A stretch of 6,360 nt of DNA from positions 1 through 6,360 of the IMG/VR virus record IMGVR_UViG_2778261419_000001; one strand, written 5' to 3'. Below the pieces are notes generated by a model, which ran no database searches, had not been told where the DNA came from, and worked only from the letters and a program-made list of their open reading frames with translations. Both the position numbers and the translations under genes were made by a program. This DNA comes from a virus (taxonomy: Duplodnaviria; Heunggongvirae; Uroviricota; Caudoviricetes). Numbering within the stretch: the first letter of the stretch is position 1; the number at the start of each line of letters is the position of its first letter. Below are positions 1 to 6,360 of the stretch, piece after piece.

Positions 1-195
1 CGCTTACCGCTCATGGGCACCTCTCTTTAAGCCATCTTAAATGACTCTGAGGTGTCTGTTAAACCCGTGGCGATTCAGTTATTGGTATCTCATTACGCAC
101 CATTGCTAAGAAAAGAAAATGCTCTGATGGCACAATTAGGAAGGAGTTGCAAACTGCAGTAGGATTTATAAACGGTGTAATGTCAGTATTTAAAT

Positions 196-215
196 AAGCG
201 CCAATTAAGGCGCTT
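196..215 (-). terminator. Stem-loop overlapping the stop codon of the 187-aa gene; possible intrinsic terminator
   Basis: Perfect inverted repeat AAGCGCC (196-202) / GGCGCTT (209-215) with 6-nt loop. On the minus-strand transcript the stop codon lies in the loop and the stem is followed by AUUUAAAU, which is U-rich but interrupted. Confidence 0.35.
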
Positions 216-768
216 TAAATGGAACGGGAACCTGTAAAGCGTTAGCAGCTATCTCAACTATTTTCTCGTTTGGAATATTTGCTAATATAAAGCGTTCCCT
301 TTCTTGTAAAATTTTGTTTATAACGTAATACACGCTTAACATGCTGAACAACATTGATTCTTCCTTTGCTTTGCAAGAATAGTTATCCACTTTCCAGTTT
401 TCAGACACATAGTCATATTTTGATTTAATTTGCTTTGATAGTAATAGAACATTTTTTAATGCTATTCGAGTGTCTCGATTGTAGTAAGAGTAAATATTAT
501 CTATGTTCTTCTCTAGAATAATTGGTTCAAACGTTTTCCCTAAAGAAATATACTGAAAATCTTTGGGTTTAAATGTGTGTTCTTTTATGCTTTTGCTAGT
601 GGTTTTGATAGATTTCTCTAGTATTGATAATTCATCCTCTAACTCAGTGAATATGCTTTTTTTTAATGTTTTTATCTTTTCTTTTTCCTTTCTAGACTCA
701 ACGTATGGCGCTAGTATAATACCCAAAAGAAAAGTGGTAAAAGGAATTAAGCTTTTGATAATGTCCAT
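205..768 (-). CDS. Hypothetical membrane-anchored protein, 187 aa: one N-terminal transmembrane helix followed by a Lys/Glu-rich soluble domain; cargo (moron) gene
   Basis: Intact ORF with ATG at 768-766 preceded by AAGGA 4 nt upstream. Residues about 5-23 (IKSLIPFTTFLLGIILAPYV) are hydrophobic, then KEKEKIK and a charged domain. Hand-sampled GC is about 30%, against about 55% in the terminase genes. No family recognised. Confidence 0.6.
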   Translation of the reverse strand: MDIIKSLIPFTTFLLGIILAPYVESRKEKEKIKTLKKSIFTELEDELSILEKSIKTTSKSIKEHTFKPKDFQYISLGKTFEPIILEKNIDNIYSYYNRDTRIALKNVLLLSKQIKSKYDYVSENWKVDNYSCKAKEESMLFSMLSVYYVINKILQERERFILANIPNEKIVEIAANALQVPVPFKAP

Positions 769-807
769 GGTTTCCTTATTTTTTCATATGATTAACGCTA
801 GGAAAAT

Positions 808-836
808 ATGATAATAAAAAACTAACGCGTACGCAA
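808..836 (-). promoter_or_regulatory. Candidate sigma70 promoter for the 187-aa gene
   Basis: On the minus strand: -35 TTGCGT (+ coordinates 836-831), 17-nt spacer, -10 TATCAT (813-808), about 35 nt upstream of the RBS. Found by eye only. Confidence 0.3.
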
Positions 837-913
837 AAATTATTGTATCGTGTTAAGAGTGGTTACTTTGTCACGTGGCTTAAGCCCGCCGTCGAGCGGG
901 TTTCGTCGTTTGA

Positions 914-922
914 GGGGGGGGG
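914..922 (+). repeat. Homopolymeric G9 tract (C9 on the minus strand) immediately 5' of an ATG
   Basis: Directly visible: GAGGGGGGGGG followed by ATG at 923. The tract doubles as the Shine-Dalgarno region and spacer for the 66-aa ORF. Confidence 0.9.
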
Positions 923-1123
923 ATGAATCAGACTGGTCAACCCAGCTATGCGCTTTTCGCCGGGAATGATAGTAGCAATCTCAAAACGTTTGTTCTTGAG
1001 GTTGATTGCTACCGTACTGAAGACGCGCTATTAGCAATGGAGAAAGCCATAAGCGAATTAAAAATCTGTCAGCGTCAGTTCGGCTATGGAAATGATTCTG
1101 GTGTCAGAGCTATTATTCGATAA
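923..1123 (+). CDS. Small hypothetical protein, 66 aa; 3' end overlaps the convergent 182-aa gene by 11 nt
   Basis: ATG at 923 directly follows a GAGG plus G-run that could serve as SD. Amino-acid composition is not low-complexity. No family recognised. It could be spurious. Confidence 0.3.
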   Translation: MNQTGQPSYALFAGNDSSNLKTFVLEVDCYRTEDALLAMEKAISELKICQRQFGYGNDSGVRAIIR

Positions 1124-1661
1124 TTCTTTCACCAATAATAACTGGCAATGGAATGAGCACTTCCCAGAATGGTTGATACCCTTCGTAAATCTGTGTTGTT
1201 TCACCCTTCCAGTAAAGATCCAGCCTCTGAGATACTTCTACTGGGGAGCAGTTCAGATTTAACAAATTCATATCACCTCTATGATAGTTCGACGATGAGC
1301 TGACTTGAAATATTGGGGTGTCAAGTGGGGATTTTGAAAAGCCTCTGAACCAGGCGGTTTCTTTTACAGACTCACATGCAAAAATTGATTGGAAGCGCGA
1401 TGGTTTTTCAGGGAAGTGTGATTTCCTTCGTTCTTCCAGTAGTATTTCTATTATTGCTCCAAATCGTTCGTCTGAGCTGACGAGGTTTATGTGGTAGTTG
1501 AAAAAAAGATTATTTGCATGCCGGGATACACCGTCGGAAAACAATGAGCTCGTATGAGCCTGAAGTGGAACGATTGGGCAGTACGGTTCTGCTAATTCAA
1601 TTTTCATGCCTGACTTCAGTGTGCGCTGCCTGTCAAGTGTATAAAAAAGATTGTTCGCCAT
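1113..1661 (-). CDS. Hypothetical protein, 182 aa; cargo gene between the Q region and the late promoter/lysis genes
   Basis: Intact ORF with ATG at 1661-1659. GAAGGA lies about 10 nt upstream, which is rather long spacing. Hand-sampled GC about 40-47%. No transmembrane segment and no motif I can assign with confidence. Confidence 0.5.
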   Translation of the reverse strand: MANNLFYTLDRQRTLKSGMKIELAEPYCPIVPLQAHTSSLFSDGVSRHANNLFFNYHINLVSSDERFGAIIEILLEERRKSHFPEKPSRFQSIFACESVKETAWFRGFSKSPLDTPIFQVSSSSNYHRGDMNLLNLNCSPVEVSQRLDLYWKGETTQIYEGYQPFWEVLIPLPVIIGERIIE

Positions 1662-1861
1662 ATTAATGCGTTCCTTCTGATATTGGTTATTTCTGTTGAT
1701 TTAACGATATCAGAATAGATAAGTATAGTGAATACAATGCCGTAAAAGCGGCAGCACGGCTTCCGTATCTGATAGCTTGGCTGGATGAAATGGCGTCGCA
1801 GCGCTCATAGTGGCAACGATTAGCGGACCTCGGCATTTGCCTGTTTTTATATTTAAGGCCG

Positions 1862-1893
1862 CTGACATCTGGAATTGTCGGGGATTTTTTATT
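1862..1893 (+). terminator. tR'-like intrinsic terminator (end of a 6S-like late leader) just upstream of the pinholin gene
   Basis: Stem CTGACA (1862-1867) / TGTCGG (1876-1881) with one G-U pair, then GGA TTTTTT ATT (T-run 1885-1890). The GTCGGGGATTTTTTAT arrangement resembles the lambda tR' end as I recall it. The Q-dependent promoter and qut site should lie in 1662-1861 but I could not pin down hexamers. Confidence 0.4.
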
Positions 1894-1928
1894 CTCTCAA
1901 TTTGCACCCGCATCTGCGAGGTGGAGTT

Positions 1929-2144
1929 ATGAAATCCATGGATAAGTTAACAACGGGTGTCGCCTATGGCACCTCAGCAGGTAGTGCCGGTTACTGGTTT
2001 TTACAGCTGCTCGATAAAGTCACGCCCTCACAGTGGGCAGCAATAGGTGTGCTGGGTAGCCTGGTATTTGGCCTGCTGACGTACCTGACAAACCTTTATT
2101 TCAAGATTAAAGAAGATAAGCGCAAGGCTGCGAGAGGTGAATAA
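1929..2144 (+). CDS. essD: Pinholin, phage 21 S21-type, 71 aa, with dual start M1/M4 (antiholin/holin)
   Basis: Translation [71 protein letters not shown] matches the S21/EssD pinholin as I recall it. GAGG lies 7 nt upstream of ATG 1929; a second ATG sits at 1938. Stop overlaps the next start (TAATG). The ORF-track start at 1875 is probably not used. Confidence 0.9.
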
Positions 2145-2641
2145 TGCCTCCATCATTACGAAAAGCAGTTGCTGCTGCTATTGGTGGCGGAGCAATTGCT
2201 ATAGCATCAGTGTTAATCACTGGCCCAAGTGGTGACGATGGCCTGGAAGGTGTCAGCTACATACCATACAAAGATATCGTTGGCGTATGGACTGTATGTC
2301 ACGGACACACCGGAAAAGACATCATGCTCGGTAAAACGTATACCGAAGCAGAATGCAAAGCCCTCCTGAATAAAGACCTTGCCACGGTTGCCAGACAAAT
2401 TAACCCGTACATCAAAGTCGATATACCGGAAACAACGCGCGGCGCTCTTTACTCGTTCGTCTACAACGTGGGTGCTGGCAATTTCAGAACATCGACGCTT
2501 CTTCGCAAAATAAACCAGGGCGATATCAAAGGCGCATGTGACCAGCTACGTCGCTGGATATACGCTGGCGGTAAGCAATGGAAAGGCCTGATGACTCGTC
2601 GTGAGATTGAGCGTGAAGTCTGTTTGTGGGGGCAGCAATGA
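2144..2641 (+). CDS. rrrD: SAR endolysin (T4-lysozyme-fold muramidase, phage 21 R21 / RrrD-like), 165 aa
   Basis: N-terminal Gly/Ala-rich weakly hydrophobic SAR segment ([20 protein letters not shown]). Catalytic spacing E-x8-D-x5-T in [16 protein letters not shown]. Near-identical to RrrD as recalled. RBS GAGG upstream; translationally coupled to the pinholin. Confidence 0.9.
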
Positions 2642-3081
2642 GCAGAGTAACCGCGATTATCTCCGCTCTGATTATCTGCATCATCGTCTGCCTGTTATGG
2701 GCTGTTAATCATTACCGTGATAACGCCATCGCCTACAAAGAGCAGCGCGACAAAGCCGCATCCACTATCGCTGATATGCAGAAGCGTCAACGTGATGTAG
2801 CAGAACTCGACGCCAGATACACAAAGGAGCTTGCTGATGCTAACGCGATTATCGAAAGTCTTCGTGCTGATGTTTCTGCTGGGCGTAAGTGGCTGCGCGT
2901 CAAAGCTGTCTGTCCAGACATGCATAAAATCACCGCCGCCTCCGGCGTGGATGATGGCACCAGCCCCAGACTTACTGACACCGCTCAACGGGATTATTTC
3001 ACCCTTAGAAAGCGGATTGAAACCAGTGATAAAATGATCCGAGGCTTGCAGCAATACATTCGCACGCAGTGTGTAAGATGA
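2638..3081 (+). CDS. rz: Rz inner-membrane spanin (i-spanin), 147 aa
   Basis: ATG 2638 overlaps the endolysin stop (ATGA). N-terminal TM helix ([19 protein letters not shown]), then a charged coiled-coil-like periplasmic domain. Ends resemble lambda Rz. The ORF-track start at 2626 is GTG; ATG 2638 is preferred. Confidence 0.85.
2837..3037 (+). CDS. rz1: Rz1 outer-membrane lipoprotein spanin (o-spanin), embedded in the +1 frame of Rz, about 66 aa
   Basis: AAGGAG (2824-2829) lies 7 nt before ATG 2837. Signal peptide with lipobox LLGVSGC, then a Pro-rich region ([14 protein letters not shown]...TPLNGIISP) matching lambda Rz1. The ORF-track start at 2831 is TTG. Confidence 0.8.
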
Positions 3082-3461
3082 GCAATCTTTGCTAATTAGC
3101 CATGAAATAGATAAATATCAGGCCAACGATGATTAGTGCCAGGCATCCTAATTGGTCAGAATGGCTGGCATTTGATCGTCTTGCTCTTCTTGCAGTTGAT
3201 TGGACAGCCCTCTGTCCTCGACTTCCTCTTGGCATTCCTCTCATTTATTCTCTCTCAACATTGATATTGAACTGACAGATGATAATTATTTCATGAAAGT
3301 GGTATCTCGTTGATTTGATTACGCTACATAGTCGCCGGATTTTCGCATTTATCGGCATCGGGCGGTGCAAAATTGGCATAATCGAAACGTAGAGTTTTTG
3401 GCTGACAACAGCATTAGCGGTCACCCGGAGAGTGTTGTGAACATGTTAATTACATGACGCT

Positions 3462-3782
3462 TTAGATGCATCGACATTTGATGATGCTTGTCAGACCTGT
3501 CATTTTCTTTGCTTCATTTTCAACATTGAGGAAGTTGGTTGAGCATATTTTTTGATAATCTCCAGTTGTGAATCCTGTTTTATCGATCTTGCGTTTCAAG
3601 GGATTAATCGTTTTGCAAGATGCTCTATGGATTCTGGTAAAGCGTTCGTCAGATTTATTACCTTTACCTCTGGTTCGCTTCAATGCATTGACAACATATC
3701 CGTCTGGATTATCGCCAAGCCAATTACGATAGTCTGATTCACTCTCAGTCTGAAGGTCACTTCTGAATACCTTTATGGACAT
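3462..3782 (-). CDS. Hypothetical protein, about 106 aa, basic, with a C-x22-C-x24-C-x-C pattern; cargo gene at the bor-equivalent position upstream of cos
   Basis: Intact minus-strand ORF. The second in-frame ATG (3782-3780) has AGGAG 7 nt upstream, so it is preferred over the track start at 3800. About 40% GC. No family recognised. Confidence 0.5.
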   Translation of the reverse strand: MSIKVFRSDLQTESESDYRNWLGDNPDGYVVNALKRTRGKGNKSDERFTRIHRASCKTINPLKRKIDKTGFTTGDYQKICSTNFLNVENEAKKMTGLTSIIKCRCI

Positions 3783-3901
3783 GAAGATACTCCTGTGCAT
3801 TTATGGTACGAAGAAATAGCAAAAGTATTTTTACCGTAAATTGCGAATCTACAAAAGCAAAACAATGCGTAATATCAGAGTGAATATTCTGCCTTTAATG
3901 T

Positions 3902-4096
3902 GGGTCCTTCTGATGACCTGAGCTCTCACGGGGCGGAAGGCGCGCGGGTTTTCGCTATTTATGACAATTTTCCGGTTTAAGGCGTTTCCGTTCTTCTTCG
4001 CCGTAACCTAATGTTTTTATTTAAAACACCCCCTGAAAAGAAAGGAAACGACAGGTGCTGAAAACGGGCTTTTTGGCCTCTGTCGTTTCCTTTCTC
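3902..4096. other. cos DNA-packaging site: cosQ-like GGGTCCT (3902-3908), cosN (12-mer 3931-3942), cosB with R3 (3983-4000), I1 A/T-rich putative IHF region (about 4005-4031), R2 (4035-4054, inverted) and R1 (4080-4096)
   Basis: Collinear with the lambda left end as recalled: CGCGGGTTTTCGCTATTTATGA follows the 12-mer; R3 CGTTTCCGTTCTTCTTCG; R2/R1 form an inverted repeat GAAAGGAAACGACAG / CTGTCGTTTCCTTTC; sits immediately upstream of Nu1. Confidence 0.8.
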
Positions 4097-4119
4097 TGTT
4101 TTTGTCCGTGGAATGAACA

Positions 4120-4665
4120 ATGGAAGTCAACAAAAAGCAGCTGGCTGACATTTTCGGTGCGAGTATCCGTACCATTCAGAACTGGCAGGAACAGGGAATG
4201 CCCGTTCTGCGAGGCGGTGGCAAGGGTAATGAGGTGCTTTATGACTCTGCCGCCGTTATAAGATGGTATGCCGAAAGGGATGCTGAAATTGAGAACGAAA
4301 AGCTGCGCCGGGAAGTTGAAGAACTGCGGCAGGCCAGCGAGACAGATCTCCAGCCAGGGACTATTGAGTACGAACGCCATCGACTTACGCGTGCGCAGGC
4401 CGACGCACAGGAGCTGAAAAATGCCAGAGACTCCGCTGAAGTGGTGGAAACCGCATTCTGTACTTTCGTGCTGTCGCGGATCGCAGGTGAAATTGCCAGT
4501 ATTCTCGACGGGATCCCCCTGTCGGTGCAGCGGCGTTTTCCGGAACTGGAAAACCGACATGTTGATTTCCTGAAACGGGATATCATCAAAGCCATGAACA
4601 AAGCAGCCGCGCTGGATGAACTGATACCGGGGTTGCTGAGTGAATATATCGAACAGTCAGGTTAA
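4120..4665 (+). CDS. nu1: Terminase small subunit (lambda gpNu1 homolog), 181 aa
   Basis: Translation MEVNKKQLADIFGASIRTIQNWQEQGMPVLRGGGKGNEVLYDSAAV... is essentially lambda Nu1 (winged-HTH N-terminus that binds the cosB R elements). It overlaps the A start by 26 nt, as in lambda. Confidence 0.92.
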   Translation: MEVNKKQLADIFGASIRTIQNWQEQGMPVLRGGGKGNEVLYDSAAVIRWYAERDAEIENEKLRREVEELRQASETDLQPGTIEYERHRLTRAQADAQELKNARDSAEVVETAFCTFVLSRIAGEIASILDGIPLSVQRRFPELENRHVDFLKRDIIKAMNKAAALDELIPGLLSEYIEQSG

Positions 4666-6322
4666 CAGGCTGCGGCATTTTGTCCGCGCCGGGCTTCGCT
4701 CACTGTTCAGGCCGGAGCCACAGACCGCCGTTGAATGGGCGGATGCCAATTACTATCTCCCAAAAGAATCCGCATACCAGGAAGGGCGCTGGGAAACACT
4801 GCCCTTTCAGCGGGCCATCATGAATGCGATGGGCAGCGACTACATCCGTGAGGTGAATGTGGTGAAGTCTGCCCGTGTCGGTTATTCCAAAATGCTGCTG
4901 GGTGTTTATGCCTACTTTATAGAGCATAAGCAGCGCAACACCCTTATCTGGTTGCCGACGGATGGTGATGCCGAGAACTTTATGAAAACCCACGTTGAGC
5001 CGACCATCCGCGATATTCCGTCGCTGCTGGCGCTGGCTCCGTGGTATGGCAAAAAGCACCGGGATAACACGCTCACCATGAAGCGTTTTTCCAATGGTCG
5101 TGGCTTCTGGTGCCTGGGCGGTAAAGCGGCAAAAAACTACCGTGAAAAGTCGGTGGATGTGGCGGGTTATGATGAACTTGCTGCCTTTGATGAGGATATT
5201 GAACAGGAAGGCTCTCCGACGTTCCTTGGCGACAAACGTATTGAAGGCTCGGTCTGGCCAAAGTCCATCCGTGGCTCCACGCCAAAAGTGAGAGGCACCT
5301 GCCAGATTGAGCGTGCAGCCAGTGAATCCCCGCATTTTATGCGTTTTCATGTTGCCTGCCCGCACTGCGGGGAGGAGCAGTATCTTAAATTTGGCGACAA
5401 AGAGACGCCGTTTGGCCTCAAATGGACGCCGGATGACCCCTCCAGCGTGTTTTATCTCTGCGAGCATAATGCCTGCGTCATCCGCCAGCAGGAGCTGGAC
5501 TTTACTGATGCCCGTTATATCTGCGAAAAGACCGGGATCTGGACCCGTGATGGCATTCTCTGGTTTTCGTCATCCGGTGAAGAGATTGAGCCGCCGGACA
5601 GTGTGACCTTTCACATCTGGACGGCGTACAGCCCGTTCACCACCTGGGTGCAGATTGTCAAAGACTGGATGAAAACAAAAGGGGATACGGGAAAACGTAA
5701 AACCTTCGTGAACACCACGCTCGGTGAGACGTGGGAAGCGAAAATCGGCGAACGTCCGGATGCTGAAGTGATGGCAGAGCGGAAAGAGCATTATTCAGCG
5801 CCCGTTCCTGACCGTGTGGCTTACCTGACCGCCGGTATCGACTCCCAGCTGGACCGCTACGAAATGCGCGTATGGGGATGGGGGCCGGGTGAGGAAAGCT
5901 GGCTGATTGACCGGCAGATTATTATGGGCCGCCACGACGATGAACAGACGCTGCTGCGTGTGGATGAGGCCATCAATAAAACCTATACCCGCCGGAATGG
6001 TGCAGAAATGTCGATATCCCGTATCTGCTGGGATACTGGCGGGATTGACCCGACCATTGTGTATGAACGCTCGAAAAAACATGGGCTGTTCCGGGTGATC
6101 CCCATTAAAGGGGCATCCGTCTACGGAAAGCCGGTGGCCAGCATGCCACGTAAGCGAAACAAAAACGGGGTTTACCTTACCGAAATCGGTACGGATACCG
6201 CGAAAGAGCAGATTTATAACCGCTTCACACTGACGCCGGAAGGGGATGAACCGCTTCCCGGTGCCGTTCACTTCCCGAATAACCCGGATATCCAACAGCG
6301 TATGGAAATATCATTCACCTGA
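4640..6322 (+). CDS. A: Terminase large subunit (lambda gpA homolog), 560-aa ORF; lambda-like to about residue 551, then a divergent 9-codon tail and stop; probably a C-terminally truncated pseudogene
   Basis: GTG start at 4640. N-terminal 550 aa match lambda gpA (641 aa) as recalled. From about nt 6294 the sequence departs (PNNPDIQQRMEISFT-stop here, versus PNNPDIFDLTEAQQ... in lambda), with in-frame TGA at 6320-6322. Confidence 0.8.
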   Translation: MNISNSQVNRLRHFVRAGLRSLFRPEPQTAVEWADANYYLPKESAYQEGRWETLPFQRAIMNAMGSDYIREVNVVKSARVGYSKMLLGVYAYFIEHKQRNTLIWLPTDGDAENFMKTHVEPTIRDIPSLLALAPWYGKKHRDNTLTMKRFSNGRGFWCLGGKAAKNYREKSVDVAGYDELAAFDEDIEQEGSPTFLGDKRIEGSVWPKSIRGSTPKVRGTCQIERAASESPHFMRFHVACPHCGEEQYLKFGDKETPFGLKWTPDDPSSVFYLCEHNACVIRQQELDFTDARYICEKTGIWTRDGILWFSSSGEEIEPPDSVTFHIWTAYSPFTTWVQIVKDWMKTKGDTGKRKTFVNTTLGETWEAKIGERPDAEVMAERKEHYSAPVPDRVAYLTAGIDSQLDRYEMRVWGWGPGEESWLIDRQIIMGRHDDEQTLLRVDEAINKTYTRRNGAEMSISRICWDTGGIDPTIVYERSKKHGLFRVIPIKGASVYGKPVASMPRKRNKNGVYLTEIGTDTAKEQIYNRFTLTPEGDEPLPGAVHFPNNPDIQQRMEISFT

Positions 6323-6360
6323 AAGGGATGACAGCCGTTGGCGAAGGTGAGTTACTCATC

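Follow-up and report, generated by a model that had tools for sequence, protein, structure and literature searches.

What is the role of a pure run of nine guanines that stands directly in front of a start codon? This question is raised by the viral record IMGVR_UViG_2778261419_000001 of IMG/VR, whose positions 1 to 6,360 make up the window, i.e., the whole stretch of DNA that was analysed here. Direct reading of the plus strand gives t911 g912 a913, then nine G residues at 914–922 and then the ATG (923–925) of an open reading frame (ORF) for a protein of 66 amino acids (aa), in the order ...GCGGGTTTCGTCGTTTGA-GGGGGGGGG-ATGAATCAG... across the tract. This bears out an earlier description made from the letters alone (the sequence-only reading), which had also placed the tract, as C9 of the minus strand, correctly between a 182-aa gene (1661–1113) and a 187-aa gene (768–205), and which had taken the run for a possible slipped-strand switch that supplies the Shine-Dalgarno (SD) sequence and the spacer of the 66-aa ORF. 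Within the window, G9 is the only G/C homopolymer of at least 7 nt, and 0.016 G/C runs of at least 9 nt would be expected there by chance (first-order Markov model based on the dinucleotide composition of the window). In 1.33 Mb of related Escherichia coli prophage DNA, 41 of the 41 G/C runs of at least 9 nt fall at the G-tract locus, and two runs of 8 occur away from it. The run is confirmed as a genuine, non-chance feature. The best overall explanation that we can offer, and one on which our confidence is evenly balanced, is that it constitutes a slippage-prone SD and spacer run that would give a graded dose of the 66-aa protein.

The length of the tract differs among related prophage copies. 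The comparison covers consensus assemblies only; the tally counts each record once and leaves out loci that were picked through a length-specific protein. In the 27 records that were counted in this way G9 is the modal length (13 records), followed by G10 (nine), G11 (three), G8 (one), and G12 (one). A pattern scan of IMG/VR yielded G9, G9, G10, and G10, and ten loci that were found through the exact 66-aa protein, for the most part in complete genomes, had G8 (one), G9 (four), G10 (three), G11 (one), and G12 (one). The single metagenome match had G11, and further G9, G10, and G11 tracts came from loci found via the neighbouring 182-aa and 187-aa proteins. Among contigs that had been selected for given lengths, a DNA check on independent short-read contigs verified G8 (two runs), G11 (four samples), and G13 (one sample). 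Runs with these lengths include SRR24146879 and DRR827182 for G8, SRR9914227 and ERR10789621/23/24 for G10, and ERR14928302, SRR8653177, and SRR8533892 for G11; the G13 tract belongs to the ENA assembly ERZ27235612. One identical G10 contig was assembled out of 7 samples, three runs from one project all had G10, and overall this length was found in more than 10 runs. Lengths from G8 to G13 have been seen in DNA, and G7 is known from a protein call alone (P0022). The called N-terminal extensions reveal the length directly, with ...RLRGGM for G8 and ...RLRGGGM for G11 in one frame, and ...FEGGM for G7, ...FEGGGM for G10, and ...FEGGGGM for G13 in the other. One flank haplotype of 832 nt occurs with G8, G9, G10, and G13, and other identical-flank haplotypes (832–840 nt) carry the lengths 10/11/12, 9/11, and 9/10. 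Since identical 832-nt flanks carry different lengths, these alignments indicate that the tract mutates much faster than the 832 flanking sites combined. Pure G8–G10 runs are still present in lineages that have diverged by 3–4%. Thus, the length heterogeneity that the sequence-only reading had suggested looking for does exist among related assemblies, with G8–G13 in DNA, G7 inferred, and identical flanks around them. At the population level, slipped-strand length variation is strongly supported by these comparisons, with slippage as the presumed mutational mechanism. The simplest reading of the assemblies is that the tract is truly hypermutable; assembly error may add single extreme values, but would not account for the pattern.

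The 66-aa ORF reads as a real gene whose protein is under clear purifying selection, because its pairwise ratio of nonsynonymous to synonymous substitution rates (dN/dS) is 0.08–0.16 in frame, compared to 1.3–3.9 in the other two frames. At least 285 contigs of E. coli, E. marmotae, E. albertii, and E. whittamii encode the identical protein, and homologues with 85–92% identity are present in Serratia fonticola and other hosts. Its AlphaFold2 (AF2) model has a predicted local distance difference test score (pLDDT) of 84 and showed no significant fold match in the PDB. The family is tiny, with about 15 clusters among 1.84 billion representatives, and this profile search gave no functional lead. 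PADLOC and NCBIfam contained no match for the 66-, 182-, and 187-aa proteins nor for a 112-aa protein encoded further downstream, and species-representative genomes yielded no match in two scans. The complete E. coli genome and GenBank phage collections that were searched contained the leader upstream of the gene (807–924) only, with no copy of the 66-aa ORF or of the 182-aa gene, which belongs to the family DUF2441. The exact 66-aa and DUF2441 proteins are found on hundreds of NCBI E. coli contigs, and the carriers CP057349 and CP055888 lie outside the searched genome collection.

The origin of the tract can be deduced from divergent homologues, in which the 66-aa gene follows directly after a terminator-like hairpin and has a canonical SD. 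Exactly where E. coli has the G run, Serratia and other hosts have GGAGG plus 4 nt or GAGG plus 5 nt (...tttctGGAGGgggtATG in locus L030, ...tttatGGAGGcggtATG in L031, and ...GTGAGGcagctATG in L028), and TTTCTGGAGGGGGTATG of L030 and TTTGAGGGGGGGGGATG of the window are equal in length. Because the homologues hold a canonical SD and spacer at the same position, the tract descends from such a sequence, and the alignment identifies G9 as an ancestral GGAGG with its 4-nt spacer that was made pure by a small number of substitutions. The proposal that the tract supplies the SD and spacer is thereby supported. By positional alignment, the pairing register of UGAGGGGG is that of the ancestral GGAGG of L030 and L031 and of the GAGG of L028, and its duplex with the 16S rRNA has a modelled energy of -10 kcal/mol.

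The effect of tract length was estimated with a ribosome-binding site (RBS) model that combines the 16S duplex energy with a published spacing penalty and is a thermodynamic RBS calculator in a simplified form of our own. In this model, the strongest SD register stays fixed at the tract's 5' edge, and the aligned spacing equals n-6 for a tract of n G residues. The hybridisation plus spacing term amounts to -3.7 kcal/mol for G7 and G8, -8.5 for G9, -10.0 for G10 and G11, -9.7 for G12, and -9.3 for G13, a spread of up to 6 kcal/mol. The model thus predicts a graded change in translation, which would be weak at G7–8, intermediate at G9, and on a plateau at G10–12. As the tract lies outside the ORF, whose own ATG is preserved along with an SD-like sequence at every length, a frame-based OFF state would not be expected. 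In this respect the proposed switch could not be upheld: no length breaks the ORF or drops the ATG or the SD, and the rough model is graded, not on/off. According to this model, the tract is most likely a dimmer on 66-aa translation, and tuning by tract length is plausible.

Some lengths (G10, G7, and G13; or G8 and G11) open an upstream frame into the 66-aa ORF, and gene callers extend the ORF through the terminator into "proteins" of 90–102 aa (P0001–P0005, P0021–P0024), of which the 93-aa artefact P0004 even serves as a 90% cluster representative. Such frame-switch products were rejected, because they would start within the conserved promoter/leader core, cross the terminator hairpin, and be without an SD. 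In practical terms, the tract misleads gene callers by these spurious extensions and is a likely site of homopolymer miscalls in assemblies.

Directly upstream of the tract lies a non-coding leader (822–913), which recurs with 85–91% identity in Shigella phage SfII and in 108 complete E. coli genomes, and of which a core 21-mer is found on at least 119 IMG/VR contigs. It always lies behind Q and the variable minus-strand inserts, ahead of the holin gene, and is annotated nowhere in those copies. Its conservation begins sharply at CTAACGCG, and the DNA upstream is unrelated. The leader holds a direct ACGC repeat and -10-like hexamers, which are candidates for PR', an element bound by Q (QBE), and a pause site; the candidate promoter parts are CTAACGCGTACGCAAAAA, then the -10-like TATTGT (841–846), and then the -10-like TACTTT (864–869). 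In Q cassettes, the Q gene is followed by PR', a sigma-dependent pause element, a terminator, and the late genes (bioRxiv 10.1101/651190). From this architecture and from reading of the sequence, we infer that 822–913 presents the PR'-to-tR' leader with its promoter, QBE, and pause sites. In more than 100 prophage copies, the tR' stem is preserved and the loop is variable (CGTCGA, CGCTGA, CGCCAG, CATTGA, and others), and in most relatives a T6–T7 run follows the hairpin, a combination that carries the signature of a functional intrinsic terminator. In the window, the stem could be extended by A882–G884 with U901–U903, and a simple terminator scan missed tR' because the T run is interrupted in this copy. 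An Rfam search of the window with E values up to 1 revealed nothing relevant. The tract starts 3 nt past the T-rich tail and 14 nt past the stem, and the ATG is located 12 nt past the tail. Since the 66-aa ORF starts so close to tR', and the homologues also stand just past a terminator, the gene would depend on read-through transcription.

A leader of about 92 nt (CTAACGCGTACGCAAAAAnTATTGTATCGTGTTAAGAGTGGTTAC...hairpin...T-run) is common to well over 100 E. coli and Shigella prophages with a small Q21-family Q and is probably the PR'/QBE/pause/tR' module of those prophages. Downstream of the terminator, the copies form three families, one of which has the interrupted G-rich motif TTTCTGGGGCTGGGGATT at the tract position. 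The leader copies that were compared also include L001–L003 and L050–L127.

The Q gene itself has been cut by an insertion sequence (IS) element in this prophage copy, because identity to the intact 114-aa Q genes of relatives begins only at about 79–86, after the IS end at 78. A transposase-annotated element that matches window positions 1–78 with 100% identity was found in 1764 E. coli genomes, on chromosomes as well as plasmids. The intact Q of L010 matches the Q21 structures 6p18 and 6jnx with E=1e-3.

Overall, we suggest the following mechanism. A small conserved gene had a canonical SD and spacer (GGAGGNGGT-ATG), from which the run arose by a limited number of point changes. This gene is the first ORF after tR' of a Q21-family late cassette in lambdoid E. 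coli prophages and would be transcribed by read-through of tR', strongly with Q after induction and by a weak leak in lysogens. With the SD fixed at the 5' edge of the tract, the gain or loss of a G at replication would shift the SD-to-AUG spacing by 1 nt at a time and leave the 66-aa frame untouched. Such spacing changes would presumably alter translation, as the RBS model implies. The outcome would be a heritable, reversible, and graded level of the 66-aa protein, which would be poor at G7–8, reflect the ancestral spacing at G9, and be optimal at G10–12.

Several points weigh against this mechanism. If an mRNA unfolding term is added to the model, the differences between the lengths shrink to about 4 kcal/mol and the ranks change, and in the predicted folds the SD is about 75% paired at every tract length. 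It could also be that the poly-G pairs with the anti-SD in several registers and thereby buffers changes in spacing. The natural lengths peak at G9–G10 and not at the modelled optimum, and this peak would fit neutral slippage around the ancestral length equally. Furthermore, G8 of L011 and G12 of L014 were read from hybrid long-read assemblies, which may contain homopolymer errors. Finally, with Q destroyed, strong late transcription may never occur in the present copy, so that only leak through the terminator or a compatible Q from another prophage could drive the 66-aa gene.

It might therefore be that the tract is hypermutable and its length has no meaningful effect, a neutral by-product of an SD and spacer that drifted to pure G; we consider this a serious, though less likely, alternative. 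The ribosome would then slide along the poly-G to a workable register, and the ORF would never be disrupted. This would agree with the frame and ATG, which are unchanged at all lengths, with the reasoning that GGGGG inside the run can pair with CCUCC in any register, with the small spread of the modelled totals and the flat accessibility of the SD across n, and with the centring of the length distribution on the ancestral G9. However, the strongest register is anchored by the UGA at the 5' edge, and the modelled spacing penalty is steep at G8 or fewer. The persistence of pure tracts of at least 8 nt in the diverged lineages also speaks for maintenance, but as weak evidence.

Compared to graded dosing and to neutral slippage, an action at the level of DNA or transcription appears very unlikely. 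Here, the tract would serve as a C run in the promoter spacer of the 187-aa gene, as a modulator of tR' efficiency, or as a site of RNA polymerase slippage or pausing. The tract does lie within the downstream duplex that is held by a terminating polymerase. Moreover, in the read-through RNA the tract and UCGUUUGA are predicted to pair with the 5' arm of the terminator, in a longer hairpin that would be 4–7 kcal/mol more stable than the terminator fold. For window positions 880–925, the predicted pairing is CCCGCC-G-UCGAGCGG with UCGUUUGA-GG-GGG, which buries the SD. However, this alternative hairpin is probably incidental, since the related leader family (b) has TTTCTGGGGCTGGGG and does not conserve it. 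Moreover, the length changes fall at the tract end that is far from the terminator. A function as antiterminator was rejected, because the tract is transcribed only past the release site and the related leader family does not share the pairing. The tract as a promoter spacer was rejected as well, because neither a scan nor reading of the sequence revealed a -35/-10 pair flanking the tract on either strand. Nor could the tie to the 187-aa gene promoter, which the sequence-only reading had drawn, be maintained: the tract accompanies the 66-aa ORF whatever gene is upstream, be it the 187-aa gene, a porin gene, a 294-aa gene, or others. The last alternative, one true length with all differences being sequencing or assembly errors, is hardly credible, because, although homopolymers of at least 9 nt are error-prone, above all in long-read and hybrid assemblies such as those of L011 and L014, the lengths are reproducible in independent short-read samples within each length class (G8, G11, and G10), the spread around the mode is far above consensus error rates, and no other locus in the 1.33 Mb has such runs.

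The 66-aa gene and the DUF2441 gene are convergent and their 3' ends overlap by 11 nt; the same convergent pair with overlapping stops is present in every locus from E. coli, from Serratia fonticola, where it lies downstream of hicAB, and from other hosts. DUF2441 is listed in the ADP-ribosyltransferase (ART) clan of Pfam (PMC7955679), and a literature search on the tract locus or on DUF2441 function gave nothing past this clan assignment. The AF2 model of the DUF2441 protein (pLDDT 92) has its best PDB match in 2AUA, the structure of the uncharacterised BC2332 (E=3e-7), and weakly matches the cholera, pertussis, Plt, and Rhs ADP-ribosyl toxins (E 0.2–2). Together with the PF10386 score above its gathering cut-off and the clan listing, the model assigns the protein to the ADP-ribosyltransferase fold superfamily. 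Invariant residues are R79, S88, H127, Y150, E142, and E167. The pair is retained even in decayed prophages, which hints at a host-beneficial function for which dosage may matter. A toxin/partner or defence role would fit this retention and is an attractive guess. However, the convergent layout is unlike that of classical toxin-antitoxin operons, and the pair is not co-transcribed as an operon in any locus. It might even be that slipping between G7 and G13 sets, cell by cell and in a heritable way, the dose of a 66-aa protein that counters or regulates the ART-like DUF2441 protein, in the manner of a contingency rheostat, which we consider unlikely.

With regard to its distribution, the pair looks like a conserved two-gene insert (L028, L030, and L031 included) with no PADLOC match. 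In some copies the DUF2441 or 187-aa gene is shorter or truncated (164 aa in L009, L015, L016, and L040; 52 aa in L012), and L015 has a 67-aa remnant of the 187-aa gene; the shortened copies show no obvious relation to tract length.

Homopolymeric G/C tracts that change by slipped-strand mispairing are well known as simple sequence repeat (SSR) contingency loci of Neisseria, Haemophilus, Campylobacter, Helicobacter, and Bordetella. Examples of SSR contingency loci have been described (PMC1891110, PMC5084427). The present tract resembles them in being a pure G run of at least 8 nt whose length differs between near-identical genomes and which is placed where it may affect expression of an adjacent gene. 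Unlike them, it forms the SD and spacer instead of lying in an ORF or a promoter spacer, so that no OFF state is expected, its host is E. coli, and its length variation is known between genomes, from consensus assemblies. E. coli is a textbook case of phase variation by inversion and methylation, not by homopolymer slippage, and to our knowledge it is not known for homopolymer-based phase variation. A literature search on phase variation in E. coli yielded inversion-based systems only (PMC4272514). In the tlpB-hp0102 leader of H. pylori, the length of a G-repeat (6–16 G) gives gradual, not ON/OFF, post-transcriptional control; this repeat is located upstream of the RBS and acts by pairing with the C/U-rich loop of the trans-acting small RNA (sRNA) RepG (PMC8295292). 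We consider it the closest mechanistic precedent, since it is likewise a variable G-repeat in a 5' untranslated leader. In contrast to tlpB, the repeat here itself serves as RBS and spacer; an sRNA partner is not known, none having been sought.

The surroundings of the tract are like those of lambdoid Q cassettes, with a Q21-family Q and a conserved leader with an intrinsic terminator, followed by holin, lysozyme, and Rz in the same direction. They differ from them by their inserts, with the 187-aa gene separating Q from the leader and the 66-aa and DUF2441 genes separating tR' from S, by the first ORF only 12 nt past the tR' tail, and by a Q that is only distantly related to Q21. In comparison with ART-fold toxin systems (DarT-DarG, RES-Xre, Rhs Tre-Tri), the pair likewise has an ART-clan protein that is invariably linked to one small-protein gene, whereas the genes here are convergent and overlapping, are known from sequence and a model alone, and have no PADLOC or NCBIfam match. 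In kind, the tract would belong with the SSR loci; unusual are the E. coli host, the SD/spacer placement after a Q-cassette terminator, and the gene that it serves.

An RBS-forming tract of G7 to G13 would be a rare enterobacterial case of repeat-driven heterogeneity in expression, and it sits on a widespread two-gene insert of a small protein and an ART-fold DUF2441 protein. If the rheostat is true, subpopulations of lysogens would show different toxin- or defence-type phenotypes, or prophage induction would end differently in them. It would then also constitute a translational SSR rheostat on the gene that comes first after tR', in a species believed to be without homopolymer phase variation.

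The features of the window are collected in the following table.

Features of the 6,360-nt window around the G tract (positions as numbered in the window)
Feature	Position	Strand	Remarks
Q antiterminator remnant, Q21 family PF06530	79–197	+	C-terminal ~40 codons; Pfam E=3e-8 on 63–197
187-aa gene, phrog_31367	205–768	-	Interchangeable insert between Q and late leader
Late-leader core, non-coding	822–913	+	Conserved; candidate Q-binding/promoter region, then tR'
tR' intrinsic terminator	882–911	+	Stem C885–C889/G896–G900, loop 890–895, T-rich tail TTTCGTCGTTT 901–911
SD equivalent UGAGGGGG	911–918	+	Predicted 8-bp pairing, two G-U included, with the 16S 3' end
G9 homopolymer, hypervariable	914–922	+	Spans 3' part of SD and entire spacer
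66-aa protein-coding gene, phrog_10826	923–1123	+	PHROG E=2e-40; predicted beta-beta-alpha-beta fold
182-aa DUF2441 gene	1113–1661	-	PF10386, 26.7 bits (cut-off 25); phrog_5663
S21-type holin	1929–2144	+	Pfam PF04971
Lysozyme	2144–2641	+	Pfam PF00959
Rz, with Rz1 embedded	2638–3081	+	Pfam PF03245

The window corresponds to the 6360-bp contig NOSD01000093.1 from a draft assembly of E. coli and, by its gene content, reads as a piece of a decayed lambdoid E. coli prophage. The place of the 187-aa gene is taken in other copies by a porin gene, by a 294-aa gene, or by unrelated DNA. Downstream of Rz, the plus strand carries Nu1 and a truncated terminase gene. Within 4640–6360, the ORF for the large terminase subunit ends early at 6322, and other E. 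coli prophages match the last ~85 nt with "phage tail protein" DNA; thus, the terminase has been joined to tail genes by a deletion. In the relatives L008 and L014, the holin is joined directly to tail genes. Terminator-like hairpins are located on the minus strand at 1738–1753, just upstream of the DUF2441 start, and on the plus strand at 1862–1881, shortly before the holin gene S, with GGATTTTTTA after the hairpin. Between Rz and Nu1/cos, the minus strand contains the 112-aa ORF (3462–3800), which also had no match in Pfam or PHROGs, and at this position relatives carry bor, DUF6979, or other small genes.

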